The notes under the pieces are model-generated. The model was given only the letters and a program-made list of their open reading frames with translations, searched no databases and was not told the origin of the DNA. Positions 3,584-51,700 of a stretch of 64,000 nucleotides of DNA are shown here, in pieces (the first letter of the stretch is position 1; every line of letters begins with the position of its first letter). A program made the translations under genes and the position numbers. The stretch covers positions 44,270-108,269 of the forward strand of contig CAYLXA010000008.1 in NCBI GenBank assembly GCA_964387845.1, in the 5' to 3' direction. This DNA is from an uncultured bacterium (GTDB lineage: Bacteria; Omnitrophota; Omnitrophia; Omnitrophales; Abzuiibacteriaceae).

Positions 3584-3590
3584 TCGGAAC

Positions 3591-12236: not shown

Positions 12237-12238
12237 CC

Positions 12239-13537: not shown

Positions 13538-14463
13538 GTTTTTCGCTCCGGATCGGTACTCGGGGAAGCAAGCTTGCGCTTTATCAAGCGCAGCTGGTTG
13601 AATCCGGAATCCGGAAAGCTTTTCCGGATCTCAAAATCGAGACGGTGAAGATTAAAACAAAGGGCGATGCGGTTCAGCAGGGCTCCATCTCTTCGATCGG
13701 GCGCGGAATTTTTACCCGTGAAATTGAAGAAGCATTGTTGAGACGAGAAGTCGATCTGGCGGTCCACAGCGCGAAAGATTTAGAAACAGAGCTTCCGAAA
13801 GGATTGACGATCGGTGCTGTACTGGAGCGCGAAGATGCGCGCGATTGTTTGATTACGCTGGATCGGCGGAAATTCGGTGATTTGCCGAGAAAAGCCAAGA
13901 TCGGTACGAGTTCTTTGAGGCGAAAAGCGCAGCTTTTGCATCTTCGGCCGGATTTCAATGTTGCCGATTTGCGCGGTAATGTGGATACGCGCGTCAAGAA
14001 GCTCGAATCCGGCGAGTTTGAAGCGATTGTGATGGCCGCAGCCGGCATTAAACGGCTTGGGCTGTCGAGTTTGATTACGGAAATTCTGGATGACAGTAAA
14101 ATGCTGCCGCAAGCCGCGCAGGGCGCTATCGCGGTTGAATTAAGGCAGGATGATCAGAAAGTGAGAGATCTTGTGAAGCTAATCAATCACGAGAAAAGTT
14201 TTCTACAAGCGGAAGCGGAACGCGCGTTTTTACGGACTTTGCATGGCGGCTGCCAGATTCCAGTTGGGGTGAAAAGTGATTTTAATCAAACGCATTTTCA
14301 TATGAAAGCTGCTGTATTTTCTTTGGACGGAAAAAAAGCGGTTCGGAATGAATTGTCGGGACCGAAAGAAAAAGCAAAAGAGCTCGGAATTCAGTTGGCT
14401 GAGAAATTATTGTCGCAGGGCGCGCGCGAAATTCTGGAAGATATTCGAAAAAATTTAAAATGA
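13534..14463 (+). CDS. hemC: Hydroxymethylbilane synthase (porphobilinogen deaminase)
   Basis: LRIGTRGSKLALYQA..., SAKDLETELP, TSSLRRKAQL, RGNVDTRVKKL, GGCQIPVG are conserved HemC motifs. ATGA overlap with hemA. Confidence 0.9.
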   Translation: MSFSLRIGTRGSKLALYQAQLVESGIRKAFPDLKIETVKIKTKGDAVQQGSISSIGRGIFTREIEEALLRREVDLAVHSAKDLETELPKGLTIGAVLEREDARDCLITLDRRKFGDLPRKAKIGTSSLRRKAQLLHLRPDFNVADLRGNVDTRVKKLESGEFEAIVMAAAGIKRLGLSSLITEILDDSKMLPQAAQGAIAVELRQDDQKVRDLVKLINHEKSFLQAEAERAFLRTLHGGCQIPVGVKSDFNQTHFHMKAAVFSLDGKKAVRNELSGPKEKAKELGIQLAEKLLSQGAREILEDIRKNLK

Positions 14464-15977
14464 AGAAACTAGGAACCGTTTATTTAGTCGGTGCCGGCCC
14501 CGGAAATCCGAAATTGATTACGGTGCGTGGGCGCGAACTGCTTGAAGCTTGCGATATTGTGATTTACGATTCGCTGATTTCCGAATCGTTACTCAACTGC
14601 GCAAAAAATGCGGTCAAAATTTATGCCGGCAAAACCAGCAAAACACATAGAAAATTCAGCCAAGTTGAAATTGAAAAAATGTTGATTCATTATGCAAAAC
14701 TCGGAAAATCGGTCGTCCGTTTAAAAGGCGGCGACCCCTTTATCTTTGGCCGCGGTGGTGACGAGGCGCTGGCTTTGCAAAACGCCAAAATTCCATATGA
14801 AATTGTGCCCGGCATTACAGCAGCGATTGGTGCATCCGCTTTTGCGGGAATTCCGATGACGCACCGGCAAATGGCTTCTGACGTCACATTTATCACTGCT
14901 CACGAAGATCCGCTGAAACCCGACGTTCAAGTGAATTGGAAAGCGATCGCGAGCCTCACCGGAACTCTCGTGATTTATATGGGCGTTTACAGGTTAGAAG
15001 ATGTTGCAACTCGATTAATTCAACTTGGAAAAAATCCTGAAACGCCCACGGGAATTATCGAATGGGGAACCACTTCTAATCAAAAAACTGTGACAAGCAC
15101 TTTGGATAAGATTGCAGAAACAGCAGAAATGGCGAACATAAAGTCGCCAGCAGTTATCGTGATCGGAGAAGTTGTTTCGCTTAGGAAGCAGCTTGCGTGG
15201 TTTGAGGAAAGGCCGCTTTTTGGAAAAACGGTTGTTGTCACGCGGCCTCGCCATCAAGCCGGGGCGCTCGCTGAACTTTTAGAAAGCCAAGGTGCGCGTG
15301 TGGTTGAAATTCCCACAGTTGAAATTCATCCCGTCAAAAATTTGAAAAAAGCGGACGAGTCCATCCGCCAGATTTCAAAATACAATTGGCTGGTGTTTAC
15401 GAGTGAGAACGGCGTTGAATATTTTATGAAGCGGTTAAAGCAAATCGGTTTTGACGCGCGGAAGTTAAATAAAATTAAAATTGCAGTTGTCGGGCCGGGA
15501 ACAGAAAAAAAAATAAATTCTTATTCATTGAAAGCAGATTTTGTTCCGGAAGTATTTTCAACCGAAGACCTTTTCCGGGATTTAAAGCGAAAAAAAATGG
15601 TTCGCGGGAACCATTTTTTGCTGGTCCGGACGACAATTGCCAATGACGAACTCAAGAAATCGATTCAAAAAGAGGGCGGTTTTGCAACAGAGCTTTCGAT
15701 TTATGAAACACGCAAACCAAAGTTAGACCGCCGAAAGGTAAAATCGGCGGTCGAAAAGGTCGATTATGTGACGTTTACGAGCGCATCAACCGCAAATAAT
15801 TTTTTCAGTCTTTTTTCACGCGCGGAATTGAAAAATATAAGAAGTAAATTCATATCCATCGGGCCGGTTACCTCGCAAGCCATTCGAAGCTTCAAAGTTC
15901 CCGTGTATAAACAAGCGAATCCTTACACAATTCCCGGGCTTGTGGACGCAATCACGAACGGAAACGGAAAAAACTAA
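14460..15977 (+). CDS. cobA/hemD: Fused uroporphyrinogen-III C-methyltransferase / uroporphyrinogen-III synthase
   Basis: N-terminal VYLVGAGPGNPKLITVRGRELLEACDIVIYDSL...GGDPFIFGRGGDE is CobA/SUMT. C-terminal PLFGKTVVVTRPRHQAG...LVFTSENGV is the HemD fold. Confidence 0.9.
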   Translation: MKKLGTVYLVGAGPGNPKLITVRGRELLEACDIVIYDSLISESLLNCAKNAVKIYAGKTSKTHRKFSQVEIEKMLIHYAKLGKSVVRLKGGDPFIFGRGGDEALALQNAKIPYEIVPGITAAIGASAFAGIPMTHRQMASDVTFITAHEDPLKPDVQVNWKAIASLTGTLVIYMGVYRLEDVATRLIQLGKNPETPTGIIEWGTTSNQKTVTSTLDKIAETAEMANIKSPAVIVIGEVVSLRKQLAWFEERPLFGKTVVVTRPRHQAGALAELLESQGARVVEIPTVEIHPVKNLKKADESIRQISKYNWLVFTSENGVEYFMKRLKQIGFDARKLNKIKIAVVGPGTEKKINSYSLKADFVPEVFSTEDLFRDLKRKKMVRGNHFLLVRTTIANDELKKSIQKEGGFATELSIYETRKPKLDRRKVKSAVEKVDYVTFTSASTANNFFSLFSRAELKNIRSKFISIGPVTSQAIRSFKVPVYKQANPYTIPGLVDAITNGNGKN

Positions 15978-16948
15978 TGGCATATCCCAAAACGCGGCTT
16001 AGAAGGCTCCGGCGCACGGAAAATCTGAGGCGCCTTGTCAAGGAAACACATCTTTCTCCGGATCAGTTGATCATGCCGTATTTTGTTTCGGAACTGATCC
16101 GAGGCAAAGAGCCGATTCAATCAATGCCGGGACAATTCCGGTATTCAATATCCGCGCTTTTATCAGAGCTCGATGGTTTAAGCCGCACAGGGGTTCGAAA
16201 TATCATCCTGTTCGGAATTCCGAAGAACAAAGATGAAAAAGCGCGCAGTGCTTATTCATCAAAGGGAATTATTCAACAAACCACGCGCCAAATCAAAAAG
16301 CGTTTTCCGGGGCTGAATGTGATCACGGATGTTTGCCTGTGCGAATACATGAGCCACGGCCATTGCGGCATCATTCAAAAAAACCATGTTCAAAATGATG
16401 CAACGCTTACGCTTCTTGCCAAAACTGCGCTTTCGCATGCCGAGGCCGGCGCCGACATTGTGGCGCCGAGCGACATGATGGACGGCCGGATTGCCGCGAT
16501 CCGCAAAAATTTAGACCGAAGCGGTTTTGAGGAATTGCCGATAATGAGTTATGCCGCGAAATTTGCCTCAGCTTATTATGGGCCGTTCCGTGAGGCCGCG
16601 CATTCTGCTCCGTCATTTGGCGACCGGAAAAGTTATCAGATGAATCCGGCCAACCGGAAAGAGGCCTTGCGCGAAATCGAAACGGATATTGAAGAAGGCG
16701 CCGATATTGTCATGATCAAGCCGGCGCTGCCGTATTTGGACGTGATTCGGGATGCGAACGCGAAGTTTCAAATTCCGTTTGCGGCCTATCAAGTGAGCGG
16801 TGAGTATTCGATGATCAAAGCGGGTGCCAAAGCCGGGTTTATGGATGAGCGGCAGCTGGTTTTGGAAACATTGCTTTCAATTAAACGGGCGGGAGCCAAT
16901 ATCATTCTGACGTATTTTGCAAAAGACGCTGCGAAATGGCTGAAATGA
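15977..16948 (+). CDS. hemB: Porphobilinogen synthase (delta-aminolevulinic acid dehydratase)
   Basis: RLRRLRRTENLRRLVKETHLSPDQLIMPYFV, cysteine cluster CLCEYMSHGHCG (Zn-type), DIVMIKPALPYLD, YQVSGEY active-site lysine region. Confidence 0.9.
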   Translation: MAYPKTRLRRLRRTENLRRLVKETHLSPDQLIMPYFVSELIRGKEPIQSMPGQFRYSISALLSELDGLSRTGVRNIILFGIPKNKDEKARSAYSSKGIIQQTTRQIKKRFPGLNVITDVCLCEYMSHGHCGIIQKNHVQNDATLTLLAKTALSHAEAGADIVAPSDMMDGRIAAIRKNLDRSGFEELPIMSYAAKFASAYYGPFREAAHSAPSFGDRKSYQMNPANRKEALREIETDIEEGADIVMIKPALPYLDVIRDANAKFQIPFAAYQVSGEYSMIKAGAKAGFMDERQLVLETLLSIKRAGANIILTYFAKDAAKWLK

Positions 16949-17964
16949 ATCAATCAGTTTCAAAACACTCCTCACCCCAACCCTCTCCCATGGGGAGAGG
17001 GCAGGGTGAGGGGTCGAGAAGATTTCATTTTTCAATTCTTGTTTTTTTCGGTACGTTCATCCTTTGCTTCGCGCTCTGGATGACTTATCTACAGCAAGTC
17101 GGCTCCTCCGAAAATCATTTCGGAAGTTACCTGATTCTGATCATGGGCCTTTTATTTTCGGCAGCCTGCGGACTTTTTGTTTGGTCGCTTGAGTCCCGGG
17201 AACAGTTTCTCAAGAATGAAGTTGAGAAGCGGACGGTTCAGCTTCAAAGCATTAATGAGGAACTCGCCGAAAAGAATAAAGAAATCGAAAGCTTTGCTTA
17301 CGCCATCTCGCACGATTTAAAAGCACCGCTGGTTTCCATTCAAGGTTTTACGTCATTATTAAAATCCGAACTCGGAAAAACTGCCGAAGGGCCTGTCGGT
17401 GCTCAACTAGACCGTATTTCAGCAAACGTAAAACAGATGAGTGCGCTTATTCAGGATATCTTGGAATTTTCAAGAGTCGGCCGCATGGAAGAAGAGCAGG
17501 AAAGTGTCGATATGAATGAGCTTTTCAAGGAAATCACGGCTGCGCTGAGGCCTCAAATTGAAAGCAAAAAAATCATACTTGAAATTAAACCGCCTTTTTC
17601 AACGCTGTGGGGATCCCGGAAGCGCCTTCAACAGGTATTTATGAATTTGATCGGAAATTCCGTTAAATATATAGGTACTACGCCCAGCCCCAAGGTTAAA
17701 GTATATGGCCGGGAATCCGGAAACGGGCTTTTTGAGATTTGCGTTGAAGACAACGGCATCGGGATCCCGAAAGAAGCTCAGGAAAAGGTATTTAAAATTT
17801 TTCAGCGTTTTCATCCTAAATTGGGCGTCGAAGGGACCGGAATCGGTTTGAGCACCGTCAAGAAAATCGTAGAGACGAGCGGCGGGCGGATTTCGTTTAC
17901 GTCGGAACCCGGCAAAGGAACGTCTTTTTTTATCGCCTGGCCGAAAACGGATTTAAAAAAATGA
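16945..17964 (+). CDS. Sensor histidine kinase (2 TM, HisKA + HATPase_c) with an in-frame palindromic-element insertion near the N-terminus
   Basis: H-box FAYAISHDLKAPL, N-box LIGNSVKY, G-boxes DNGIGIP / GTGIGLSTV. Start placed at the ATG overlapping the hemB stop (ATGA). The ORF opens at 16936. Confidence 0.8.
   Translation: MNQSVSKHSSPQPSPMGRGQGEGSRRFHFSILVFFGTFILCFALWMTYLQQVGSSENHFGSYLILIMGLLFSAACGLFVWSLESREQFLKNEVEKRTVQLQSINEELAEKNKEIESFAYAISHDLKAPLVSIQGFTSLLKSELGKTAEGPVGAQLDRISANVKQMSALIQDILEFSRVGRMEEEQESVDMNELFKEITAALRPQIESKKIILEIKPPFSTLWGSRKRLQQVFMNLIGNSVKYIGTTPSPKVKVYGRESGNGLFEICVEDNGIGIPKEAQEKVFKIFQRFHPKLGVEGTGIGLSTVKKIVETSGGRISFTSEPGKGTSFFIAWPKTDLKK
16970..17011. repeat. REP-like nested palindrome CCTCACCC-CAA-CCCTCTCCC-ATGG-GGAGAGGG-CAG-GGTGAGG inside a coding region
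   Basis: Perfect nested inverted repeat. It is translated in-frame as SPQPSPMGRGQGEG in the kinase N-terminus. A related double unit is at 41725-41808. Confidence 0.7.
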
Positions 17965-23446: not shown

Positions 23447-26400
23447 GTGCGCAAAAAGCCATTTTTCATCAAAGCAATTGCCCTAGCGCTTTGCTTTACT
23501 TTTATCGCTACCGATACCATCGCTTATTCCGACGCAGCTCAGACATCTCCGCAACTGGCGGAGATGCTGAAGCAGTCCTCGAACTGGTTGAGTTTGAGGG
23601 CCGCTACCATTTCGGGACTTTTCCGCAACGCCGCACCTTCTGTTTCCGGTACGCGTTTACCTGCCGCAGCTCCCAAGTTCGCCCGTTACTTGTCAGAACT
23701 TCGAAATGAAGCCAATGAAAAACCGGTTACGGCTGACTACATATCCGCTCAAACAATTCAGAATCAAAAAACCAATGAAATTACGCCTCCGCCTCAATCT
23801 GAATTACGCCAAGAGAAGCCCAGATTTAAATCGCGGCACAGCTTTTTTAACCATGCCATACAGTTAAGCCGCAACTTATTCAAGCTTTCAGAGTGGAAAC
23901 ACCGGATTTTGAGATTGTCCAGCAGCTTCGGAAACCTTCCAGATGACATTCTGTTTCTAGTTACAACTCTTCCCATATTGATCGGAATATTGATAGTGGA
24001 TGCTCTTGATAATTTTCATGATAACCCCAAAACAAACGCAAGAATATGGTTCTGGGTTGTTACGAGTTCAGCGGTGTGGCTCTTCTCAGTGTTAACTGCC
24101 AATGTTGTTTTATTCAGATTTCAGAAACCTGCAAAAAGAAAATTGCCGGCAAAATCTGATCAGAAAGTTCAACGATCTGAATTGCGCGGCCATTCGGGCG
24201 TAGGGAGTTATGTCATTGGCGATTTGGAATTTAATAAAGGTGATCCAACCGGCTTTGAATTGATTAAACGGTTGATCGGAGAAGTAAGAGCAGGTCTTTT
24301 AACCGGCGAACTTCAAAAAGCCGGCTTGGATCAAGATTCTATTTCACATATATTCCGGCTTGCTTCTTCGCCTAGTAAAAGTGCGCGCGAGCCAATTGGT
24401 TTCAAATACAGTGAAGCGGCCGGTCAGTTTGAGCTGATTAAAAATGATTTGCGCACCTATCTTCATCAGCTTCAGAAAACACAAAATCATGATCACGAAA
24501 TCAATGTTTATGCGCTTGGGTTAGGCAATCTTCCGGTTGAAGCAGAGGAAGTCATCAAGTTGTTTCTGAACGTCATGGAAGAGGAGCTTGGCGAAGCAGC
24601 CAAAAATTGGTCTTTTAATTTTATCGGAATTGATTTTCAAGACGAACCCATCAAAGTCGCGCGAAAATACTTTGCAGAAGATATGGCTTCTCTAAAAGAA
24701 AAAGGATTCCGGAAAGTCACTTTACAAGCTGTGAAGGCAAACGCACTGTCATCTTCAGAGCTGACGCGGGTATTTGAAGAAACGGGTGGCTCTAAGAAAG
24801 CAGACTATTTATTTCATCGGCATGTGATGTATGTAAACCGTGCTTCAAGTTGGTTAAATCAGCTTCGAGGCCTCACTCCTATCACGATGTTACGGCCTGT
24901 GCTTGCTGACGCGTTGGAGTCGTACCTTCAATCACAGAATTTGATCGGCGCATTTACAAAAACAGGTACACGTTATGTTATTGAACCTCTCGCCAGCTCA
25001 GACCCAAGCATACGGGAAGTTGTCATTCCGGGATCCAGCGTTTTGCCGCAGGAAAATGGCGCAGCCGGCAGCGGGATTTATATTGTGAATGACCCCGCCG
25101 TTTTTACAGCAACCGGCTTCATTCAATATCTCCAGGATCAGCTTGGAGAAAATTTCTCCATCTCCGGCCCTCTTCGGGTCGATCGGACTGGAGGCCGGGG
25201 AGAGCTGCGCCGGGCTTCGAATTTTCATTTTGTAAACACAGTACGCAGAGTGTTGCGGCGGGAAATCGCCCAAATAGAAAAAGACAAGTGGCAAAACTGG
25301 GCAGTTGGTTTTGAGCCTGTGCAAGATGTTGCAAGCCACCTTGTCCGCGGTGCAAAGGGCGAGCTATGGATTCATTTGCACTTAACCTACCACGGACATG
25401 ATAAACGTGCTCGTTTCGCCGAAAATGGCGTCTATGACTTGGGATTGCTTTTCCGGATAACCGATCGAGAGAATCAATTAACTCTTGATGCCCCCATGAT
25501 TGAACCGCAAATAGGCCGGTCTGACTATTTTGCTTTTACACGCGCCGAAACGGTGCTTTCTTCCGAGCAGGCGGCCCGGCTTGTGAAGGAGGGAACGGAA
25601 TTTGTCAATTCGCACGCCGGTCCGATCCGCAGTGCAATGCGTCTTGCCAAGAAAAAACCGAGCTCAATTCATAATCTATTGGGCCGTGCAGTATCGCCCC
25701 GGCACGCACGAGGCCTTTACAACATGATGACATTAGGGCATGAGGAAAAGCGTGTGATTGACCGTACAAAAAGGCGCTCGGTTACTTATCGGTTTGTGGG
25801 CAGCCGGCGAAGCGAGCTGCGTCAAAAATCGGAATTAGATTCGGCCCGAGAGTTTGTGGCTCACGCTATCCAAACCGGCCAATTGAAATTAGATCTGTTT
25901 GATCGGGGAAGGGAGCCTGCAAAACAAATTCTTCAGGAAGTTTTAGCTGAAAATCAAAAGCGAAAAACGGATCATATTCAAGAAGTCGAAACCGCAAGGC
26001 ACAAAATAGCAACTTTCGAATCAAGGTTCAAAAAAATCCGTGATGAAATTGATTTTGACCCGTTTAAACCTCTGGCGCCGACGGAGCAGGAAAAAATCAT
26101 GGAATGGTGGGCTGATGACCTGTACATGATGGAATATGAAATCAGAAATTATTTAGCCGAAATTCAGTCGGGGCAGCATCCGTTTTCAGGAAACGAATTG
26201 GATCAAGTAGTGGATGCTTTAATAGCCGCTTACCGGTGGAGTATGGATGTTGTTGCTTTTTTTGAAAAACAAAAAGCAGAACTATTATTCTTTCGAAATC
26301 AAGAGACCACCGACAGCGAAGAGTCGGCCGATACCATGGCGGCACTTTCAGGCGCATTTTCAGTTTTAGCCGACATCAAATCTCCGCGCGGACAAATCCC

Positions 26401-29400
26401 GGAAAATGTTTTTTTTGCCATAGCTGCAACCAAGCGCCACAAAGCGAAAGAATTTTTACTTTCTGTTCTTCGTGAGATTGGTTTCGATAAAACAAAATCC
26501 GAAACCCAGAAAATCGTGAGAGGAAGGGCGCTTAATTATCTGTTTGCCCACTTTCACAGCTCGGAACTTGCAGCACTGGCCCGGCAGGCAATTGAAAATT
26601 TAGGCAGAGAGCAAAGATTTGATTACGATGGCTGGGCATTTGATAGCGCGTTCATGGAACTTTTGCCTTATCTCGGAGATGAGAATGTTAAAGCGTATAT
26701 TTTTAATTACTTAAAAGATGATTTTCAATTCGGAAAAGCTCTCGAAGCTGGGAACTGTTTGGAATACTTGCTGTTCGATTTAGAAACCGCGGAGGTCCCG
26801 GGTTGGTTTAAGGAGCGCTTGCAGATTTATTCGGAAAAAAATGCAGCGGCTATGGATGATTTTGGAATTACGGAAAATCAGGAAGCCTATTTAAATCGAA
26901 TTAAAAAATTAAATGATTTTCTAGCTCTAAAAGAAGCCGGAATCGGGCTGCCGTCTTATCAATTTTCAAAATACGTTTTTCGGCCTATTCATTCACAGGA
27001 TGAAATAGACACACTGCGCAAAATGAGCGGTTCATTTCCCGGACGACGCCCTGGTTGGAGCCCATGGGATATGACCGATTTTGTATTGGAAGATAGCAAG
27101 ACCCGTCAAATTGTCGGAGGCGGCATGATTTCGGAGCATGACTACGACACAGAAGCGCACCATATTCATCTTGTTGCTCTGAGTGACCAGCTGCAAGGCC
27201 GGGATAGGGCAGATGCGTTTGTGTTTATTCTCGCCGGCATGTTGCAATCCATGTCGCCAAAAATCAAAGGCCGGAAAGTTGTTTGGCGCACATGGGTAAA
27301 AGATATTCTGGAAAAGACACTCGCGCTTGATTTGGCGGGCGTTGATTTAGAACCTCTCATCAATCAAAACCCTGATGATGCACGCTCGGAATTGCTCAGT
27401 AAGCCTGAATCGCAGAATCCTATCCTCGAAATCAATCAAGATTGGCGAAACATTTTTGATGACAACGCAAAACCGCTGGTGGTGGATGTCGGGTTCGGAA
27501 ACGGAGAAACACTGCTTTACCGAGCACAGCACGAGCCGGACAAAAATTTCATCGGTATCGAACTTCCCGAAGAGCCGTATGCGGATATGCTGGCTGAAAG
27601 GATTCAAACAGTGGGAATCAAAAACCTAAAAGTCCTCAAAGTGGCTGATTTTGAGGCATTTCGCACTCAACTCAAATTCGGGAACCAAGCAATCGTTTCA
27701 GAGCTAACTTATTACGATCCGTTTCCGGATAGTCCTTATGTATTTAGAGAACATACCGCTGATTTACAGCAAATTTTAAAACCCGGCGCGCTCGTTAAAA
27801 TCATGGTTTTTGAACACGAATTTTGGCAAGAACTGTCCGGCATTTTTGAATCCAACGGATTTCAAACGCTAAATCCTGCCGACCATGTTTTTGAGGATAA
27901 TCATGATACGCAGGATTCAAATGAGGCATTTAGCACTCAACTGAAACTTATTTTCCGATGGCCCGGTCTATCATCAAATCGTTCCGAATTGCGCCAAGAC
28001 CTCAAAATTCAGACGATTCTAAACGATATTGCCCAAAGCAGATTGATTTCGGAGAATCAGCCGGAAACTCGGTCTTTTTTTAATAGAATTTCGGATCGGT
28101 TAAAACAAAAATCAGTTTCCCAAACTTTCTTTTTGACCGGATTGTTACTTTCATCTTATGTCTATATTTTATTCGAGCGCTGGCTTGCTGCCGAGCCGGT
28201 CGAATCGAATGCTCAAGAAATAGCTGCCGCCATTTTACTATTGGGCATTATTTCTACGATTTTTACCACGATCGTTAAGAGAATGAATAAGTCTAGTACA
28301 TCCTGGCGCTGGGATGTTATTAGCTTTTCGGAAAATCAAATCATAGAAGATGCATTGACTTTTCTGGACCCTCACAAACATCAATTAAATCCCAATGTGG
28401 ATATTATTGTTGAGAAAAGAAGCCACAGGTTTAAGCGTATTGCCATCGGATTTTTCAAAGAAAGTTTAAAAAATCTTGGCGCCGGTGCAATGTTTTTATT
28501 GATAGGAGGCTTTTTAGCTTGGAAAATTGGATACGGCCTTCTTGATTTGTACAAGCAAGACCTGCACGCTGCATTTAAAGTCCCTGTCTATGGCATATTC
28601 GGCGCGGGGCTGATTGTGTTTGGTTTTGTGGGCATGATGGGATTTACCGTGCTTTTTCTATCTCCGTTCATTGCTCTTATGCAGGCTTGGGATGGAGAGT
28701 TTTCAGATAAGGGAATCGAGGACCAAAGAATTTTTGTCCAGCACCAAGAATCCGAAGATGTTTTTTACGAGACGCTAGTTGAAGAATTAAATCACCGTTT
28801 CAAACTCCGCCGAGAGCCGCTTCCGGAGTTTCCAAAAACACTGGATGGTTTGCGGCTCGCCATGATACTCAAACGCTACGGCCTCCCCGGCAGTGAAATT
28901 GCGAATCGTTCCGCCTCCGGCCTCCTCCGGGTCTTGCGCCCTGAAGGGTCAGAGACCGCAGACCGTAACGCTCTCCGAGCCAACGGCTCGATGGAGCCGA
29001 GGGCACGGGGGGAACTTCGGCAGTCGGAACCTCGGAAGATGAGCAGGGCTGAGCTCGCCTCTTTATTCAGGGCGCAGCTACGCGAGGCGAATTTCATTGC
29101 ATCGATACCGGTGTTGATACAACACGTATGGAATGTAATCGCCAAATTAGCAAAGCCCCTCAACTTCCAGTTTCGCGAACTAGGCCTAACGCAAGAGCTC
29201 CTCCGTTTGCAGACAGGGTTTTGGATCACCCGATTTGGGCCTGAAGACCGGATGTGGTGGGGACTCCGCGACGGCATGAAGTTCGGAGATACCGTTAATT
29301 GGTGGGGGCCTAAACAAAAAAGACCGGAGCCCCTGGGTTTTCATACCGGGATTGATTTTGTGATGTATCAAAATTTTCAAAAGGCCTGGAAAACAATTCC

Positions 29401-38400: not shown

Positions 38401-38992
38401 ACAAAACAGGTTGGATGCCGTCATTCATGAAATCCGGAATAATTCATCAAGTGCCGTACGTTCAGAATTAAAAGTTCAGAGCGAGAAATTGGTTCAATTT
38501 TTAACCGGCGGACAAAATAGAGCCACGTCATTGTCGGGCACTGCCGAAGCTGCCAACGCGCGCTCGGCGTTTGTCTTTTTGCCCGGAACCACCAATGAGC
38601 TGGGCGCTGTTTTTAACCAGATTACAGAAGCTCTTGCCGCCAAAAGCGAATTGAGAGCCGAAATCATTGCTTACGTGGATGGCCCGTTGATGGCGCGCAC
38701 AATCCGTGAAATCATCCTCGGTGTTCAGGGCGCTGAGCGTGTCCATATCGTGGCGAGTAATGAAGAGGCCGTGGCTAAAGCTCAGTCTCTAAACGTTGCG
38801 CATGCACATTTGATCGGATGGGAGGGGGAGCTTGAAGCGCCGTTTGTCCAAAATTTGGAGGACAGCTACCTGAAGCTCGGTATTCGCGTGGTGAAGAAAA
38901 ATGTAAGTGATTTCATGAGTTTTCTCGGGCGTGAGGCCGCTCGTTTTATCCAAGGATGGAAATCAGCAGTTCTCTACGCCAAATCCGCATAA
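23447..38992 (+). CDS. Giant (5181 aa) secreted/membrane-anchored mosaic protein with about 18 [RK]SELR linker motifs, 3+ methyltransferase domains, an M23 peptidase domain, HhH and HTH modules, and FYN-G beta-repeats
   Basis: Uninterrupted 15,546-nt ORF. N-terminal signal peptide MRKKPFFIKAIALALCFTFIATDTIAYS. TM clusters at about 23.84-24.12, 28.09-28.69, 31.0-31.35 and 35.46-35.83 kb. Recognisable modules: TrmB-like MTase (VVDVGFGNGETLL...FIGIEL), M23 (GFHTGIDF...PHLHLSIGW), RpoA-alphaCTD-like HhH (ISRLNIRYRLQRRIRQAGIRTVGQLVDL), MTS-type MTase (LVVGSGSGFDTW...FDRIIWNMPEH), PIMT (GQTISQPS...VLEVGAGSGW...PFDKIVVSAG...GGLLIIPV), 3 x HTH, 6 x FY(N/D)xxGxLL repeats. Confidence 0.85.
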   Translation: MRKKPFFIKAIALALCFTFIATDTIAYSDAAQTSPQLAEMLKQSSNWLSLRAATISGLFRNAAPSVSGTRLPAAAPKFARYLSELRNEANEKPVTADYISAQTIQNQKTNEITPPPQSELRQEKPRFKSRHSFFNHAIQLSRNLFKLSEWKHRILRLSSSFGNLPDDILFLVTTLPILIGILIVDALDNFHDNPKTNARIWFWVVTSSAVWLFSVLTANVVLFRFQKPAKRKLPAKSDQKVQRSELRGHSGVGSYVIGDLEFNKGDPTGFELIKRLIGEVRAGLLTGELQKAGLDQDSISHIFRLASSPSKSAREPIGFKYSEAAGQFELIKNDLRTYLHQLQKTQNHDHEINVYALGLGNLPVEAEEVIKLFLNVMEEELGEAAKNWSFNFIGIDFQDEPIKVARKYFAEDMASLKEKGFRKVTLQAVKANALSSSELTRVFEETGGSKKADYLFHRHVMYVNRASSWLNQLRGLTPITMLRPVLADALESYLQSQNLIGAFTKTGTRYVIEPLASSDPSIREVVIPGSSVLPQENGAAGSGIYIVNDPAVFTATGFIQYLQDQLGENFSISGPLRVDRTGGRGELRRASNFHFVNTVRRVLRREIAQIEKDKWQNWAVGFEPVQDVASHLVRGAKGELWIHLHLTYHGHDKRARFAENGVYDLGLLFRITDRENQLTLDAPMIEPQIGRSDYFAFTRAETVLSSEQAARLVKEGTEFVNSHAGPIRSAMRLAKKKPSSIHNLLGRAVSPRHARGLYNMMTLGHEEKRVIDRTKRRSVTYRFVGSRRSELRQKSELDSAREFVAHAIQTGQLKLDLFDRGREPAKQILQEVLAENQKRKTDHIQEVETARHKIATFESRFKKIRDEIDFDPFKPLAPTEQEKIMEWWADDLYMMEYEIRNYLAEIQSGQHPFSGNELDQVVDALIAAYRWSMDVVAFFEKQKAELLFFRNQETTDSEESADTMAALSGAFSVLADIKSPRGQIPENVFFAIAATKRHKAKEFLLSVLREIGFDKTKSETQKIVRGRALNYLFAHFHSSELAALARQAIENLGREQRFDYDGWAFDSAFMELLPYLGDENVKAYIFNYLKDDFQFGKALEAGNCLEYLLFDLETAEVPGWFKERLQIYSEKNAAAMDDFGITENQEAYLNRIKKLNDFLALKEAGIGLPSYQFSKYVFRPIHSQDEIDTLRKMSGSFPGRRPGWSPWDMTDFVLEDSKTRQIVGGGMISEHDYDTEAHHIHLVALSDQLQGRDRADAFVFILAGMLQSMSPKIKGRKVVWRTWVKDILEKTLALDLAGVDLEPLINQNPDDARSELLSKPESQNPILEINQDWRNIFDDNAKPLVVDVGFGNGETLLYRAQHEPDKNFIGIELPEEPYADMLAERIQTVGIKNLKVLKVADFEAFRTQLKFGNQAIVSELTYYDPFPDSPYVFREHTADLQQILKPGALVKIMVFEHEFWQELSGIFESNGFQTLNPADHVFEDNHDTQDSNEAFSTQLKLIFRWPGLSSNRSELRQDLKIQTILNDIAQSRLISENQPETRSFFNRISDRLKQKSVSQTFFLTGLLLSSYVYILFERWLAAEPVESNAQEIAAAILLLGIISTIFTTIVKRMNKSSTSWRWDVISFSENQIIEDALTFLDPHKHQLNPNVDIIVEKRSHRFKRIAIGFFKESLKNLGAGAMFLLIGGFLAWKIGYGLLDLYKQDLHAAFKVPVYGIFGAGLIVFGFVGMMGFTVLFLSPFIALMQAWDGEFSDKGIEDQRIFVQHQESEDVFYETLVEELNHRFKLRREPLPEFPKTLDGLRLAMILKRYGLPGSEIANRSASGLLRVLRPEGSETADRNALRANGSMEPRARGELRQSEPRKMSRAELASLFRAQLREANFIASIPVLIQHVWNVIAKLAKPLNFQFRELGLTQELLRLQTGFWITRFGPEDRMWWGLRDGMKFGDTVNWWGPKQKRPEPLGFHTGIDFVMYQNFQKAWKTIPEGTEVQALYGGTVVSVFQDDMQSTLVVNQEITDTDGGNTLVTIYAHIEPETNVQPGVKIEAGDVLGRIRRSRNERSIVSPHLHLSIGWAKPEFFERLKSDGVDWPFVDALAKEGLLTYVDPLTFLDKNEADHFFMNAQHNKLKKILILNTQPGAQFFLTRQVIEKQFPGVTTLAVRSFEEAQKILNDPSSEIDAVVRVDESASISFPRKYLKRTAVLDYQEKNKREFLRQLHVVNVIGRLYHEPISRLNIRYRLQRRIRQAGIRTVGQLVDLANLPKKFRKFTTGLSKVPEGLERRLQGSRYKDEIIRAIVSVQPQAILTRSILHRRSLGFFQMAYRLTFGFEYHPETRNFAELILFLNGLSGSVFKELVKQFDVHIQTDLIDILQRVARIAPEAISVNVLEMFIDDEETPKRMRENFNTLADLIHMARNDTKRFKEIFGYQISWHVLLLLLEILYDAVPGEIMWQEWPDLVHTVLNPHNLPRTFGSGGLSGHINAYSAAIQAHWRRLMAEHKGYAKRKDRSELRQAGDRQIFQRAFQGIAFGGYGAGLIAATWQMLTVYPQMLRPSLFVILLTWNFYQIVKLILKQPFVSQEKINQEKYINRQLIITHLPQLGLIKAHMLAPWLEAFMQAPEVGALFLTVSGLLVSKLAFDSYLRNDGRASGRSELRTNDPEEPNAKNPRTSTYETIISNRPQMNPTESNTEQASLFMAPLENVTPDAVRWLDRVFNSRLPKGQYVFVGVVVDRKSKDIQAFQDGVYMIAKFLEVGGAFEEIGLNEIKNKKLRRRITAVGKGSSVRVIEFASVGGGDDYEIPLRRLQGVVEDYYSNEPIVWIPISPEGELSSTLGWKPKNRAFHLTLVHQAPEQEPEARSELRNDGGIILEAGQQIKAVEGYQMQLQENGSVAFYRERLSSPEPDPVEVVKPTMAGMPVYDEAGNIMGYVGITHDFEGQGEDRKLIARTAFYPEPEFDIEKTHVPSTWPAWELLKAVGLLIPKEDAHILKIEDISQTSDSKIHRITVRVPEEQSFPLRGIEILARELIENPSAEQQFDLVYNEKGHLLAVFPVFGNENRAAAEDGLFLDVSPYYFEVPKDIRGESKLLIDQFLREWRQNQQHIQAYQKKHFGSNRMNFWHFSYNNDENNDEDNKEEPLYQFYHLLHSHGHDLSYLGEVEVQSLEHIFYYVSKDPDRKMLLLPIFPTVFPPSGDPQHDTEYHKAILIDPRFDLNENQRTLVVGSGSGFDTWLVSLKTRKTVSVIDINPLAVANTKALAKIAGFKVLARTADNIVDESGKPTFPDARFDRIIWNMPEHVEGDGPSHGQLATQRTKWYLTDHWDGDVDGFSLTRFASGLCDILNPDSRVLIWNSNNEDSILNAFENRGMEVERAGLNYRYSLYFIQPSAAAGELLEPISNSADQRSEPQKHIAVLQRFKHNPTGFMGWLKNEIAEVLTIIDMPSGQFMKLPDAERRKKNQRIENAISMLYGVEDFISAKDAAKIIKNIDEARRMLDEIYQMSEWRKNDFSAIRGGKQDSKLPASTEQAWHARDIFNEFLPKNGLGEALQKYTGDKKVLDTAAEKWLPVFTRVPKHLFMPKYLRQDAYLHDAPYRIGYGQTISQPSLVAFILALLDLEPSDEVLEVGAGSGWLAALMSQQAAHVYATELIPQLAGRAERVIENMGIQNVSIVEADGSVGYPQAAPFDKIVVSAGSPNVPELLVNQLREGGLLIIPVLDPAASKKQKSYKLTLFVKEGGKLTEKLAIDRVNFVDLRGVHGWQPAPKRSELRRAAQPKDSNSEKSTPKPETESDRRIIRAVNYFLKEKRPFNQGDIAKKARVSLQTVTNRKHANPSIARFVDWALEKAPKAEPKSVQALIRAAKQLKKEGKSGVTNSVVADLAGYHPQTVTSISKLYPKVKQAVQGARQSPHAQISPTIQKVVDVIKAAAKKKQVFQNEGQIAQAAEIRPETLSRIKKRRSSYREPFLQLLQYAVSDPDRALEIIKKHFSIHSEQRVSVQASAQDENLRSELRADGAIQDPGMVVTALIGVAAFGILIFGFDSVRERAFKVGSAALKLIRRLFWLWTGVLWISTHLAYAAHRVRPDSQDKIYQATGFDPGDLNYSEFLYPWAIFTVFIYPVAAFGLMRYLNRLVMRRNVLPFETSPSRSIPAHPTTSELDINRKVGTAQPSDQYSKDPLMKGRAELRASGSNPKKKDTSKATDLEKRFKELLEEADRTLEANKQLEDGLDEIHKVLPELPKDIIDGRSELRQSDPIGTASALPGPLAKSELRNFLPNQNPINRLDAKQGSGIGARGNVLEGRSGSNSEFYNYRGEKVLVLPTSTAKGILGLGDFIVVMPRPKPGTQDHILFYNSSGSLLFEAVNVSDYSLVGENMAIKFANGNIQFYDKTGKKLLSSFDHFSNFHPSQIDLQGDLLVFKKSSNEVGFYNSTGSLILRKSKGTDFDSFYVKGSFIVLVKKDNHHVYSGLTGKLIAKTQASVGETAQFDGDFFAVVNWNEFTFYNLQGKKILEKRTGSGDDNFINWSGEGGLLTFDKTHSRTFYDENGKLLAAIQKRVFASRVVNKVLRLEDNADFYEWYDFSPNALSASSKGQKSLDQIFSHNPAMLSRIRDYVKRRYDNPLMSREEPNHDLSSDLDDASNLIQLEKMPTEWIDDLSSLVLTGYNPSDKGARSILKEAAIQLGLIQAPSSQTKEAVPITYNQKALMRILSSGVITEAIRNGQFSFPTTGKRSSLIFLSDDGTNVKRIDETDSAKANVQLEFYLSSDNRTVGVSISVRDDNKASGWRVQHEEPKQLKDLQTSIEPASSKPSLTIVSARKQRTLDELINKVSKFPGWSNPGPSTYSFAHQATQISAFYTGIVPNLQPRWAWHLKVISSGYNLSVVVEDHIQSPGKWITVVKFNNSGSNNSVASQEWGNHLIDIEQNGLKTNIYMTKAYVDSLVKNRIPLKGATIDGVEWEFIPINPKQILPAKSELRTQAEQVSIETLDAALSVEPKAQNRLDAVIHEIRNNSSSAVRSELKVQSEKLVQFLTGGQNRATSLSGTAEAANARSAFVFLPGTTNELGAVFNQITEALAAKSELRAEIIAYVDGPLMARTIREIILGVQGAERVHIVASNEEAVAKAQSLNVAHAHLIGWEGELEAPFVQNLEDSYLKLGIRVVKKNVSDFMSFLGREAARFIQGWKSAVLYAKSA

Positions 38993-39038: not shown

Positions 39039-40304
39039 ATGAGTCAATCAAGTAAGCTGTTCCAGCAGTCTAAAACACATTTCCCGGGAGGTGTGAATTC
39101 ACCGGTACGGGCGTTTCGTGCTGTCGGAGGATCGCCGCGTTTTATTGCGAAAGCCAAAGGGCAATTTATTTGGGACGCAGACGGCAAAAAATATCTCGAT
39201 TTCTGCCAGTCTTGGGGCCCGATGATTTTGGGCCACGCGCATCCGAAAGTAGCGAAAGCAATCTCCGATCAAGCCAAAAAAGGAACGAGTTACGGCGCGC
39301 CGACCGAAAATGAATCGAAACTTGCTTCCTTAATTAAAGAAGCATTTCCATCCATTCAGAAAATGCGGTTTACGTCATCCGGCACGGAAGCCGCGATGTC
39401 CGCAATCCGGGTTGCGCGCGGATTCACGAAACGGAAGAAAATCCTCAAATGCGACGGCTGCTATCATGGCCATAGCGATTCGTTGCTTGTGAAAGCCGGC
39501 TCGGGTGGTGCGACATTCGGTGTTCCGGATTCGGCCGGTGTGCCGGAAGACCTCGCGAAGCTCACGATTACGATTCCGTACAACGATTTTGACGCGCTTG
39601 AGCGTATATTTAAAAAAGAAGGAAAAAACATCGCTGTTTTTGCTCTGGAGCCCGTTCCGGCCAATATGGGCGTTGTATTGCCAAAACCCGGCTTCCTGGA
39701 GTTTGCGAGGGCCCTGACTAAGAAATACGGCACTTTGCTCATGTTTGACGAAGTCATTACGGGTTTTCGCATCGCTTTTGGCGGTGCGCAGGAATATTAC
39801 GGAATTAAAGCTGATCTCACATGCCTAGGAAAAATCGTAGGCGGCGGGCTTCCGATCGGTGTTTTCGGCGGCCGCGCAGACATTATGAGCAAAATTTCAC
39901 CGGAGGGGGCTGTTTATCAAGCCGGAACTTTGTCGGGAAATCCTCTGGCGACTGCGGCCGGCATTGCGACCTTGACGGAATTAAAGAAAAAGGATTTTTA
40001 CAAGCAGCTTAATATCAAGGCTCTTGAATTTTTCGGGATGCTGGATGATGTGTTCGAACGGGGAAGTTATCCGGTAACGCTCAACCGGATCGGCTCCATG
40101 TTCACAATTTTTTGTACACCAAACCCCGTATTTGATTACGAGTCCGCAAAATTTGCACATCCGGAGTGTTACGCCCAAATGTTTCAAAGTTTGCTTTCCA
40201 AAGGGGTTTATTTCGCGCCGTCACAGTTTGAAGCCAACTTTATTTCACAGGCAATGACACGCGAAAATCTTCAAAAAGTCGTTTCAGTTATTTCTCGTTT
40301 TTAA
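39039..40304 (+). CDS. hemL: Glutamate-1-semialdehyde 2,1-aminomutase
   Basis: FPGGVNSPVRAFRAVGG, GPMILGHAHPKV, FTSSGTEAAMSAIRVARGFT, PLP-lysine region GKIVGGGLPIGVFGGR. Confidence 0.9.
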   Translation: MSQSSKLFQQSKTHFPGGVNSPVRAFRAVGGSPRFIAKAKGQFIWDADGKKYLDFCQSWGPMILGHAHPKVAKAISDQAKKGTSYGAPTENESKLASLIKEAFPSIQKMRFTSSGTEAAMSAIRVARGFTKRKKILKCDGCYHGHSDSLLVKAGSGGATFGVPDSAGVPEDLAKLTITIPYNDFDALERIFKKEGKNIAVFALEPVPANMGVVLPKPGFLEFARALTKKYGTLLMFDEVITGFRIAFGGAQEYYGIKADLTCLGKIVGGGLPIGVFGGRADIMSKISPEGAVYQAGTLSGNPLATAAGIATLTELKKKDFYKQLNIKALEFFGMLDDVFERGSYPVTLNRIGSMFTIFCTPNPVFDYESAKFAHPECYAQMFQSLLSKGVYFAPSQFEANFISQAMTRENLQKVVSVISRF

Positions 40305-48731: not shown

Positions 48732-51700
48732 ATGAAAGTTATGCAAGGCCAAAAATATACCGCTCACCTTAAATTTGTTTCCTTATTCTTAATTATCACA
48801 CTTCTTTTAAACTCAGTTGCTTGGGCAGATCCGCCGAACGCTCATTTCTCGAAACTACCGCCCCATGTTTCGGTTTCTCATGTTAGTGAACCGATTCAAC
48901 TCCGCGATTTAAATGTCCTCGTTGATTACTTGACCGCCGACTTAAAGAACGAAGTTAAAATTGATATATCCAAAGAAACAGGAATCATTCGATCTATTTT
49001 ACGACATGATTCGCATTCTAGCCCTTTTGATTTTGATGTTGTTTTAATTCAGGATGCGCATGTCGATAACGAAGCGCAAACCAATATTCGACAAATTCTT
49101 CATTCTTTGTCAAAACAGATCGACCAACCGTTACTTATTGCGTTGGAGGGTACGAGCGGAAATTTAGAACCGAATATATTAAATTTCTTTCCGGACTATC
49201 CAAAAATCAATTCAATAATTGTGGAGGACTTGGAAAAGAGGGGAGAGCTGACAGGCGCTGAACGCTTCGCGTTTGAAAATCAACGGAATAAAACGCTTCT
49301 GGAATTTTGGGGGGCCGAAAACATTGATCAATACAAACAAAACCTTTCCGAATTTCGAGACGCTCTTCGGTTTTTTATAAATCATACCTCAGAACTCGAG
49401 CAAGCTGAGAGCCGGCTTGCCGGATTTCGCAAGCAAATTTTGAATCCTGAATTATGGTTCTTCCTAGAAAAGAGGGATGCTTTTTTAAAGGAAGAAGTTG
49501 ATTTAGCTGCTTATCTTACTTTTCTTCAGAGTGAGGCGATTCAGCATATAAAGCTTAATTTAGCCGATATTAAGCACCAATTTGATTTTCCAAATCTGGT
49601 TCGCTTTTCAAAACTTAAATACGAGGAAAATAAATTAAATCCTGAAAAGGCTTTGGAAGAATGCAGCAAACTTCTCTCTCTCGTTCAGAAGGAAATACCG
49701 AAAGGAAAAATTCAAAGTTATCTAACAGAACATCTCTGGCATCTTTCAAGAGATGTTTCTTTGCAACTGCCACAAAGTTCTCATCAAAATTTTTTTACTT
49801 CTGACCGACCTGTTATTACAGAAAAATCGCCGAACGTACGAGAGTTGTTTGAAATACTTCACGCTTCTTCGTTTATCTACAAATTTTCATTAGTACCGTT
49901 TCGAAACCTCATCCGTCTCGGACGTTTTTTGGCATTTCAATCGGAAATTGATGCCGCATCATTTTTTCAGGAGGTCCGTAAATTAGAAAGTTTGATCATT
50001 CGACGATTGGCCAAAACGCGCGAAGAGAAAAGACTTTTAGCTGCTGTGACTCGATGGAATTTGGTAAAAAAACTTTATGCACTTGAACTCAGTCGTTCGG
50101 AATTTTTGGATTATCAAAAATCGAAGCCACGGATATTAAAAACAATCTTGCGCTTTTTCCCCGCGCTTCCGGCGCCTGCACTTTCAGAAAAATTCTACGA
50201 TGGAGCATTAAAGCGCGACCATGTTCTTGTCCAAAACGCGCTTAATCATGCGGCCGGACGGCCCGTCATCATGGTAGCGGGCGGGTTTCATGCTGACGGA
50301 ATCGAATCTTATCTTCAAGACAACAATTTATCGTACGCAACCATTTCTCCGTCTATCAAAAACCCGAGCAAAGACCGCGAATCCTATTTTAAAACCTTTC
50401 AAGACGAAAACATCTCCTTTATTGTGGATATGCTGCGCACGAGCAATCCCGGCTTTTTTCGATCTGTCCGCGGCGAAAGACAATTCAATCTATTCGCTTT
50501 GGCAATTAGAAATCAGGAGGCCAATTTAGTTCGCATTTATTCTTTGACCCCCGAACAAGCGCGCTCGGAAATCAGGCAGGCGCTGGATCGGTGGCGTTTT
50601 CAATCCAGATCGGAATTGCGGCAAGACAGAAGTACCATTGTTACACCTGATAAAATCGAATCAAATTTTTCCAACAGTTCAGCAAGTCGCGCTCGAGAAA
50701 CGATCATTCCTCAAAGAATTCATCCCGGCACAATTGAAAAAATGCAAATTCCGTGGAGTTACAAATTAAGTCCAAAGTATTTTTGGAATTATCACAAAGC
50801 TTTAAGCCTGTCGGGCCTGGTTGTTTTTGGCCTGCTTTTATTTACAGCCGTAACCGGAAGAATTTTAGAACCGTTTACTGTTTTTTACTCCACGGTTTTT
50901 GCAGGCCTTTTAATGGCTCAAGCGGCCCGGTTTATCAAGAACCTCCTGATTCCTCCGGCGCATTATGTCATGCGAGATGACGGTGTCGCATTATTAGATA
51001 CTCATAACATAGAAATATTAAATCAAATCGTCTATCAATCCGAGATTCCATCCGCGATTTACATTGCCGTTGAAGATCAATTTGAAGGCAAAGATGAGAA
51101 AAGGCCGAATTATGAGGCCGTAAAAGCCTATGTTGAATTTCGCCAGGGATCATCACAGGGGTTTCGAAAAGTGAAAATCATTCCGCTCAGTAGATTGGGG
51201 CGGTTGTATTACACAAACCTTTACAATCAAAATCAAACCGGTGTGAAAAACATCATTTCAAGAAGTTTTCTCTTTGTGTGGAAATGGAAATTGTGGATAT
51301 GGATGCCTTTACTGCTTCCGGTTTGGTTGGCCGCAAATTTTCTCACGTTTGGTTATCTCAATCACGATTCTTTAATTCATTTTTACGGCGTAAAACCATT
51401 GCAAGGATGGGTAAGCTTGACGGATGTATCCGAATGGCTTCTGCATCTCAAATGGAGTTTTCTGCATCGAATCGAAATTCTCTTGTTCCTGGCGAATGAT
51501 TGGTTTAACAACACAAACAGCCTGTCCCCATGGTTTCAAACTATCGTATCGAATATTTTAACCAATCTAAGCGCCAAGTTATTTTCGTTATCAGAAACGC
51601 CGGGGTTATTCAGCTTGTACGCGGCAAAAGAAAAGGCAACAGACTACATTGCCTGGACTACGGTGATGGAGTCACTGACGTTTATCAGTTTTTTAGGTTT

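Follow-up and report, generated by a model that had tools for sequence, protein, structure and literature searches.

Viral polyproteins, such as those of the picornavirus 3C, flavivirus NS3 and potyvirus NIa systems, carry a short consensus at their junctions, which is uniform within a genome, varies between lineages with the specificity of the protease, and lies between unconserved flanks. In the bacterial phylum Omnitrophota, giant open reading frames (ORFs), the 'Archaeovorins' and other very long proteins, have been described as multi-enzyme, transmembrane-anchored, poorly conserved and rich in methyltransferases and peptidases, and their post-translational cleavage has been proposed from embedded C39 and subtilisin domains. 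In that literature the cleavage points are stated to be unknown, which blocks module-wise structure prediction, and it is left as an open puzzle whether such genes, some of more than 100,000 codons, give a single chain or cut products; no recurrent delimiter is described in the published accounts. MARTX proteins are bacterial proteins of up to ~5,200 residues, built as strings of unrelated modules, whose own cysteine protease domain (CPD) cuts at linker sites (PMC5218395); the CPD is reported to cut only after Leu, in the inter-effector linkers (PMC2780291). Here we describe a pentapeptide, RSELR and its close variants, that recurs along a protein of 5,181 residues (the giant) encoded in a stretch of 64,000 nucleotides (the window) of contig CAYLXA010000008.1, from an uncultured bacterium of the Omnitrophota.

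This pentapeptide, in its general form R-[SA]-E-x-R, is a short linear delimiter motif located in the flexible linkers of giant, cysteine-poor, membrane-associated multi-module proteins. Its copies resemble the delimiter sites of polyproteins, in an unexpected setting, and the observation is real, highly non-random and general to the protein family. A full-text search of a literature library found no mention of RSELR, RSEVR, RAEVR or RSExR as a delimiter; the matches to such strings in the alginate-lyase literature correspond to an unrelated active-site motif.

Motif copies in the giant protein

The initial annotation had listed 18 copies of the motif, and all 18 were recovered at the same coordinates, within a single ORF, on translation of 23447-38992: nine RSELR, three KSELR, two RGELR, and one each of RAELR, RSELK, QSELR and RSELL. 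The translation also contains a degenerate LSELR absent from that list. The positions in the window, with residue numbers in brackets, are given below.

23447-38992, + strand: ORF of the giant, 5,181 residues, with an N-terminal signal-like segment and four transmembrane blocks, ending in ...AKSA
23690-23704, + strand: LSELR (82-86), degenerate
23795-23809, + strand: QSELR (117), N-terminal to the first transmembrane pair
24173-24187, + strand: RSELR (243), immediately past the first transmembrane pair
25196-25210, + strand: RGELR (584)
25808-25822, + strand: RSELR (788), followed by a partial KSELD at 25826-25840, whose presence was confirmed
27383-27397, + strand: RSELL (1313), N-terminal edge of a TrmB-like methyltransferase module of 194 residues
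27980-27994, + strand: RSELR (1512), C-terminal edge of the TrmB-like module, before the second transmembrane block
29006-29020, + strand: RGELR (1854), N-terminal edge of the M23-containing module; homologue P0002 has RSEQR at the equivalent place
29396-29659, + strand: M23 peptidase domain (1984-2071; PF01551, E=3.5e-9)
30962-30976, + strand: RSELR (2506), C-terminal edge of the M23-containing module; P0002 has RSEQR within ~15 aligned residues
31391-31405, + strand: RSELR (2649), past the third transmembrane block
32009-32023, + strand: RSELR (2855)
34718-34732, + strand: RSELR (3758), 12 residues beyond the end of the PCMT domain
35441-35455, + strand: RSELR (3999), immediately before the fourth transmembrane block
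35963-35977, + strand: RAELR (4173), past the fourth transmembrane block
36155-36169, + strand: RSELR (4237)
36218-36232, + strand: KSELR (4258)
38324-38338, + strand: KSELR (4960)
38459-38473, + strand: RSELK (5005)
38642-38656, + strand: KSELR (5066), the last copy, with the C-terminus 116 residues away

Given the giant's own composition, 0.01 occurrences of RSELR are expected against the nine observed, 0.019 of [RK]SELR against 12, and 0.115 of [RK][SGA]EL[RK] against 16. An empirical background was taken from fetched loci, among which 80 GTDB loci gathered via the downstream hemL gene were used for this purpose only. In 2.53 million six-frame residues there are 12 [RK]SELR; five of these belong to two loci that are copies of the window, and the seven in unrelated GTDB loci correspond to ~0.014 per 5,181 residues. 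The frequency is thus far above expectation, and the differences in codon usage between copies that the initial annotation had noted are also present, with the nine RSELR using four Arg, five Ser, two Glu and four Leu codons. No direct repeat of more than ~30 nucleotides exists in the gene, which, together with these differing codons, agrees with its statement that the motif is not a DNA repeat. Chance, compositional bias, and a DNA-level repeat or recombination scar are effectively ruled out by these counts and codons, and by the recurrence of the motif in dozens of unrelated metagenomic contigs.

The giant contains several methyltransferase-like domains (four or five, including PCMT), an M23 peptidase, three helix-turn-helix-like repeats and only three Cys. 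A Pfam search, with E<=0.01 on two halves of the protein and E<=1 on nine segments that are delimited by the motif and make up most of the non-transmembrane parts, identified Methyltransf_4 (residues 1342-1454), M23 (1984-2071), MTS (3207-3295) and PCMT (3556-3746), and none of the motif copies falls within a Pfam-detected domain, as had been claimed. The 15-residue flanks have a fraction of order-promoting residues of 0.246, against 0.334 for the whole giant, a value reached in 0 of 20,000 resamplings, and copies flank the TrmB-like methyltransferase, as well as every one of the four transmembrane blocks, on both sides. With these bracketed modules and order-poor flanks, the copies mark module boundaries in linker-like sequence, in line with the initial annotation. 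Its description of the residue that follows the motif as frequently Q, D or N holds for Q (7 of 20) and N (2 of 20) and fails for D (0 of 20), which is common one position further on. A single-sequence AlphaFold2 model of residues 1290-1540, made to view the linkers, had a predicted local distance difference test score of 41, too low for use.

The M23 domain retains intact zinc/catalytic motifs, HTGID (1966) for HxxxD and HLH (2066) for HxH. The three tandem helix-turn-helix-like repeats (residues 3763-3998; 34733-35440) give weak matches to several Pfam families of this type and are odd in a membrane-associated giant. Within the TrmB-like module, a 25-nucleotide near-duplicate (92%), encoding EAF[RS]TQLK, occurs twice (27652-27676 and 27922-27946). 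The repeated pentamers KDPDKS, IKDPR, TNVVP and LHFSY were considered as further delimiters and rejected, being ordinary domain repeats with conserved flanks.

Homologous giants and lineage-specific variants

A second protein of the window bears the motif. It has 1,564 residues, with a single Cys, and ends in ...LSFA.

48732-53426, + strand: second motif-bearing protein, with a signal-like N-terminus, a TIKI/ChaN-like domain, a multi-transmembrane block and a C-terminal module of ~280 residues
48981-50351, + strand: predicted TIKI/EreA/ChaN/RRSP-like hydrolase domain (residues ~84-540), with conserved D108-x-H110, E139 and GGFH520
50562-50576, + strand: RSEIR (611), directly past the TIKI-like domain, aligned with RSEHR of P0002 and RSEMR of P0003
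50607-50621, + strand: RSELR (626)
52587-52601, + strand: RSELR (1286), with the C-terminus 279 residues away, the family-typical position of the last copy

When the window was scanned in all six frames, no other ORF had an in-frame strict copy ([RK]SELR or R[SGA]ELR), and the loosest pattern, [RK][SGA]EL[RK], gives one further in-frame match, RAELK at 15819 (ORF 14460-15977), which is about the chance level. An off-frame RSELR at 52169-52183, in frame +2 relative to ORF 48732-53426, lies in a stop-rich frame and was judged to be due to chance.

An exhaustive profile search with residues 1859-3058 of the giant showed that only the M23-containing module is common to other proteins, several of which are giants; outside this module no homologues were found for the C-terminal 1,200 residues or, in GTDB genomes, for the N-terminal 1,312. 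Among the homologues, P0002 (5,822 residues) has ten RSEQR and one RSEHR, P0046 has five RSE[MDSIF]R, and P0022 has two GARSELR, and these differing fourth residues point to R-S-E-x-R as the general form. The first ~500 residues of the 1,564-residue protein are homologous (BLAST) to the N-termini of other motif-bearing giants, and two database homologues of this N-terminal domain are labelled Candidatus Omnitrophota. Elsewhere, one chain bears the N-terminal domain, the M23-like module and the motif, whereas the window genome splits them over two proteins, both with RSELR.

A metagenome scan with an alignment of the N-terminal domain gave a family sample of 79 loci, in most of which the domain stands at the start of an ORF longer than 3,000 codons that continues past the fetched DNA; against these loci the giant shows one weak module match only. 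The 153,959 residues of family ORFs contain 103 RSExR against 3.5 expected, and 43 RAExR, while the permuted controls RES.R, SRE.R, ERS.R, RSD.R, RTE.R and KSE.K occur one to seven times each. From 188 R[SA]ExR sites we obtained the consensus [A/P/S/V/G]-R-[S/A]-E-[V/L/A/M/I]-R-[A/G/S/E/N], with 3-3.9 bits of information at the five core positions and <=1.4 bits elsewhere, flanks that are Pro-rich and aromatic-poor, and a median spacing of 261 residues, roughly one domain. The enrichment of R[SA]ExR is found in ORFs of at least 900 residues (21 observed vs 1.8 expected, 45 vs 2.4 and 125 vs 6.4, i.e. 12-20x), whereas ORFs of 150-900 residues are at expectation (6 vs 8.0 and 6 vs 3.1), as would be expected if only multi-module precursors required the motif. 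Several loci (L089, L091, L105, L140, L141 and L143) have two or three tandem genes, each starting with the TIKI-like domain, and the 2.17-Mb contig Ga0315338_1000003 encodes three TIKI-like-domain giants with no RSExR.

The motif is partly conserved in position. In three proteins of ~25% identity, RSEIR, RSEHR and RSEMR align directly past the N-terminal domain, and the M23 module is bracketed both in the window giant (1854 and 2506) and in P0002 (3454 and 4068). Orthologous giants have common motif columns despite differing variants (e.g. VRSELRD, ARSELRS and VRAEVRQ), with 4/16, 4/13 and 2/8 site groups common to orthologues of 35-79% identity, and many of the unshared sites lie exactly at the edge of an indel corresponding to a gained or lost module. 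In 11 of 30 independent complete proteins, among them the 1,564-residue window protein, the distance between the last copy and the C-terminus is 270-330 residues, when the spacing distribution predicts 8% (p=1.5e-5). No sequence homology is detectable between these C-terminal modules of ~300 residues beyond small clusters, and they may represent a domain conserved in structure and diverged in sequence.

The fourth residue is characteristic of each genome. Site pairs within one protein have the same fourth residue with a frequency of 0.579, against 0.228 after shuffling (reached in 0 of 5,000 shuffles), and this agreement extends to different proteins encoded on one contig. The window uses L throughout and P0002 uses Q, while V is the variant of L104, L110 and L132, A that of L121 and L126, and M that of L094 and L153. 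Some family lineages without RSExR carry other pentapeptides in a similarly unconserved, linker-like context, namely AARLA, seven times in P0033 (0.011 expected), and A[AS]SLG, five or six times in L117 (9959-21352) and L122 (9815-21226; ~0.02 expected), both almost absent from other giants. The sister-lineage ORFs listed with alternative delimiters also include L140 2279-9655. The homologous giants thus carry the motif, some at equivalent positions, and it is conserved in kind, partly in position, and with a genome-specific fourth residue, as would be expected of the peptide motif under selection that the initial annotation had proposed. With its conserved core, unconserved order-poor flanks and site turnover among homologues, it behaves as a short linear recognition motif, a conclusion that is well supported.

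The giants have two further common traits. Against 1.19% Cys in the ordinary proteins of the window, the giant has three Cys and the 1,564-residue protein one, and in the metagenomic loci (L083-L161) ORFs of at least 900 residues have 0.12-0.15% Cys, compared with 0.85-1.46% in smaller ORFs. A paucity of Cys is typical of proteins that cross the translocon unfolded. In addition, 37 of 47 complete ORFs of at least 900 residues, taken from loci L085-L153, end in Ala, and 62% in [SAQ]A (e.g. ...NHLATQA, ...AESA and ...IATAA); the two window proteins also end in Ala (...KSA, 38981-38989; ...SFA, 53415-53423), whereas only 8% of ORFs of 200-500 residues end in Ala. This tail could be a signal for C-terminal recognition, secretion or a tail-specific protease.

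Candidate readers and competing explanations

Together with the enrichment, the positional conservation, the genome-specific variant and the replacement of the motif in sister lineages are what would be expected of a recognition site that co-evolves with a factor encoded elsewhere in the genome, and they fit neither a generic structural element nor a remnant of duplication. We therefore consider that this is very probably a functional motif read in trans by such a factor, the specificity of which would change along with the motif. Our reading of that event as proteolysis, with the motif as an endoproteolytic processing site, is tentative and falls just short of what we would call probable; we favour it because the motif is confined to very large multi-module proteins, where it occurs at almost every junction, because it brackets single domains and transmembrane blocks, and because uniformity within a genome combined with drift between genomes is typical of polyprotein cleavage sites. 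In mechanism, the nearest analogue is the processing of MARTX toxins. The reader would then be a site-specific endopeptidase that cuts the giant precursor into separate soluble and membrane-anchored modules. As a speculation, the cut could fall past position 4 just as well as past the final Arg, since the fourth residue is aliphatic in 179 of 188 sites and, in the alternative delimiters, position 4 is Leu with a small residue next to it on the C-terminal side.

The TIKI-like domain is a candidate for this reader, since the TIKI superfamily includes site-specific proteases. Most family members begin with it, and the window genome has it in the separate protein 48732-53426, so that it would act in cis in most of the family and in trans on the giant. 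Its fold is the alpha/beta one of TIKI proteins, built on a parallel beta-sheet core; its sequence similarity is sub-threshold for Pfam (PF04187, E=0.076), and a helical insertion of ~380 residues lies between its two halves. It seems to represent an undescribed subfamily, located at the start of many giant ORFs and set apart from the known superfamily (Tiki, TraB/PrgY, ChaN, erythromycin esterases and RRSP) by this insertion and the sub-threshold similarity. In the family alignment His110 (IQDAH) is invariant and Asp108 nearly so, Glu139, 29 residues past His110, is invariant, and GGFH520 is nearly invariant. RRSP is a metal-independent, site-specific TIKI endopeptidase with essential Glu3900, His3902, Glu3930 (28 residues on) and His4030 (PMC6254334), to which D108-x-H110, E139 and H520 would correspond at the sequence level as parallels of E3900-x-H3902, E3930 and H4030. 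A PDB sequence search with the profile of the N-terminal domain found nothing meaningful. On balance, we think it unlikely that the TIKI-like domain is the protease that reads the motif.

The other candidate protease of the window genome is the intact M23 domain, and neither it nor the TIKI-like domain correlates with the presence of the motif; over the family loci, in particular, motif density showed no correlation with the intactness of the TIKI-like signature. Peptidases of the M23 family act on peptidoglycan as Gly-Gly endopeptidases, and the autoprocessing by M23 that the initial annotation had envisaged is unlikely as a general mechanism, since the motif is also present in proteins without a Pfam M23, such as 48732-53426. 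The HtpX (M48) protease that it had brought in is encoded by ORF 9-923, 23 kb away among unrelated housekeeping genes, and a link to it was rejected as unsupported; a connection of the PCMT domain to the motif is likewise unsupported.

Several observations weigh against proteolysis, and against the TIKI-like domain as its agent. About half of the family giants lack RSExR, and the TIKI-like signature is equally intact in members without the motif, such as the ~1,050-residue proteins of L107-L115. This domain lies behind a signal-peptide-like segment, whereas the S-adenosylmethionine-dependent methyltransferase modules should be cytoplasmic, and the TIKI fold also covers esterases and haem binders. 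The main point against simple proteolysis comes from a crude and unreliable hydropathy count, in which 132 of 160 intervals between consecutive copies have no transmembrane segment, 20 have an odd number of helices and eight an even, non-zero number. The count suggests that a single transmembrane helix often separates consecutive copies; if the predictions are right, copies would face both compartments, a difficulty for a protease present in only one of them. A test of whether copies lie on the same side of the membrane (hydropathy plus K/R bias), also a crude prediction, gave 8 vs 5 with one tie. To our knowledge the motif matches no known protease consensus, and of the sites considered (PEXEL/RxLR, furin/kexin, S1P, separase ExxR, D-box and PilZ RxxxR) none fits [small]-R-[SA]-E-[aliphatic]-R. 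Judged from the sequences, the data would fit an uncleaved recognition motif almost as well as a cleaved one.

Such an uncleaved motif could be a docking site, through which a genome-encoded partner (chaperone, scaffold, insertase or secretion component) binds each linker and organises, exports or holds the intact chain. We regard this as somewhat unlikely: the linker context, the turnover between orthologues and the genome-specific fourth residue fit it equally well, close or overlapping copies (21 residues apart in the window, and RSEARAEVR in L101) would raise avidity, and the conserved ...[SAQ]A tail and extreme Cys depletion point to an export or recognition machinery, but docking gives no obvious reason for the absence of the motif from proteins of less than 900 residues, nor for its presence at nearly every junction, including the exact edges of single domains. 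A post-translational modification site, for Arg/Glu methylation or Ser phosphorylation by, perhaps, an embedded methyltransferase-like module, seems improbable. The number of methyltransferase-like domains in the giant, the PrmA-type protein methyltransferase domain of family member P0158, and the rank of methyltransferases in the literature among the commonest domains of Omnitrophota long proteins would all suit it; however, Ser is replaceable by Ala or Gly, so that its phosphorylation is not essential, the 1,564-residue ORF bears the motif without a detectable methyltransferase, and the lineage-specific fourth residue, along with AARLA and A[AS]SLG, which have no common modifiable residue, is a misfit for a fixed chemistry.

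The location in linkers, and the charges of R..E.R, which could form local salt bridges, would also be compatible with a purely structural element (a hinge, helix cap or salt-bridged turn) with no dedicated reader. Such an element should also occur in ordinary multidomain proteins of less than 900 residues, and does not, and it accounts neither for a genome-specific fourth residue common to unrelated proteins nor for the wholesale swap to chemically different pentapeptides in sister lineages, which makes it very improbable. Barely credible, finally, is a co-translational nascent-chain signal, a ribosome pause or targeting hand-over at boundaries by which each module of the 15-kb message would fold or insert before the next. 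Positions at boundaries and before transmembrane blocks are those where pausing would be useful, and a signal of this kind would work whichever side of the membrane a module reaches; however, a signal addressed to the ribosome would be expected neither to vary at the fourth residue nor to be exchanged for AARLA or A[AS]SLG, most intervals between copies contain no transmembrane segment (see above), and the motif has no similarity to the arrest peptides known to us.

Returning to proteolysis, a broader proposal would be that Omnitrophota-type free-living bacteria make true cellular polyproteins, in which a lineage-specific delimiter code (R[SA]ExR with its genome-specific fourth residue, AARLA or A[AS]SLG) guides a co-evolving enzyme, maybe TIKI/RRSP-like, that cuts the precursors into dozens of enzymes and membrane anchors, with the ...[SAQ]A tail and the avoidance of Cys belonging to the same export and processing pathway. 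We consider this proposal possible, if doubtful.

Genomic setting and comparison with known systems

Apart from those of the two motif-bearing proteins, the genes of the window are of the ordinary housekeeping kind, among them gltBD, acs, cstA, ispH and genes for haem synthesis and a MacB-type efflux system, and no mobile-element or secretion-system context was found among the neighbours of the giant gene in the window. The giant gene and acs separate the haem-synthesis cluster (hemA, a cobA-hemD fusion and neighbours; 12083-17964) from a putative hemL (39039-40304), an assignment that is our reading of a class-III aminotransferase gene. The best GTDB match of the window HemL (57%) is from a Verrucomicrobiia metagenome-assembled genome, and none of the 80 GTDB loci examined for hemL synteny has the giant gene or the motif. 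The contig sequence of the window was also assembled from SRR15237813.

With the RSELR-type motif there is, for the first time, a concrete candidate for the points at which such giants may be cut or read. Fragment boundaries can be predicted from it for proteomics, it offers a principled way of splitting giants into modules for structure prediction and annotation, and complete genomes would allow the variation of its fourth residue to be correlated with candidate reader enzymes. Should cleavage take place at these sites, the polyprotein strategy known from viruses and toxins would extend to a bacterial phylum's core proteome; otherwise, the motif still points to an unknown recognition system specific to giant proteins.

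Among described proteins, the window giant resembles the Omnitrophota giants in being a multi-enzyme, transmembrane-anchored, poorly conserved long ORF, but with 5.2 thousand residues it is below the published thresholds of 10-30 thousand. It also resembles MARTX proteins in its size, its unrelated modules and its short linker sites, and the MARTX effector RRSP has the TIKI fold of the domain found here. The giant has, however, in the Pfam searches of its halves and segments described above, no match for the CPD (C80) or for RTX repeats, which, with its three Cys in 5,181 residues, led us to reject its identity as a MARTX toxin. The sites also differ, being a five-residue consensus in the window and, for MARTX CPD, Leu followed by a small residue, and so do the modules, which here, as far as their sequences indicate, would be housekeeping-type enzymes between transmembrane blocks instead of host-directed effectors. 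In contrast to viral polyproteins, the giant is encoded on a cellular chromosome, among ordinary neighbours such as acs, hemL and gltB, and no chymotrypsin-like or papain-like protease was detected in it. As in viral polyproteins, its motif recurs at module junctions, is uniform within the genome, differs between lineages, and is set in unconserved flanks.

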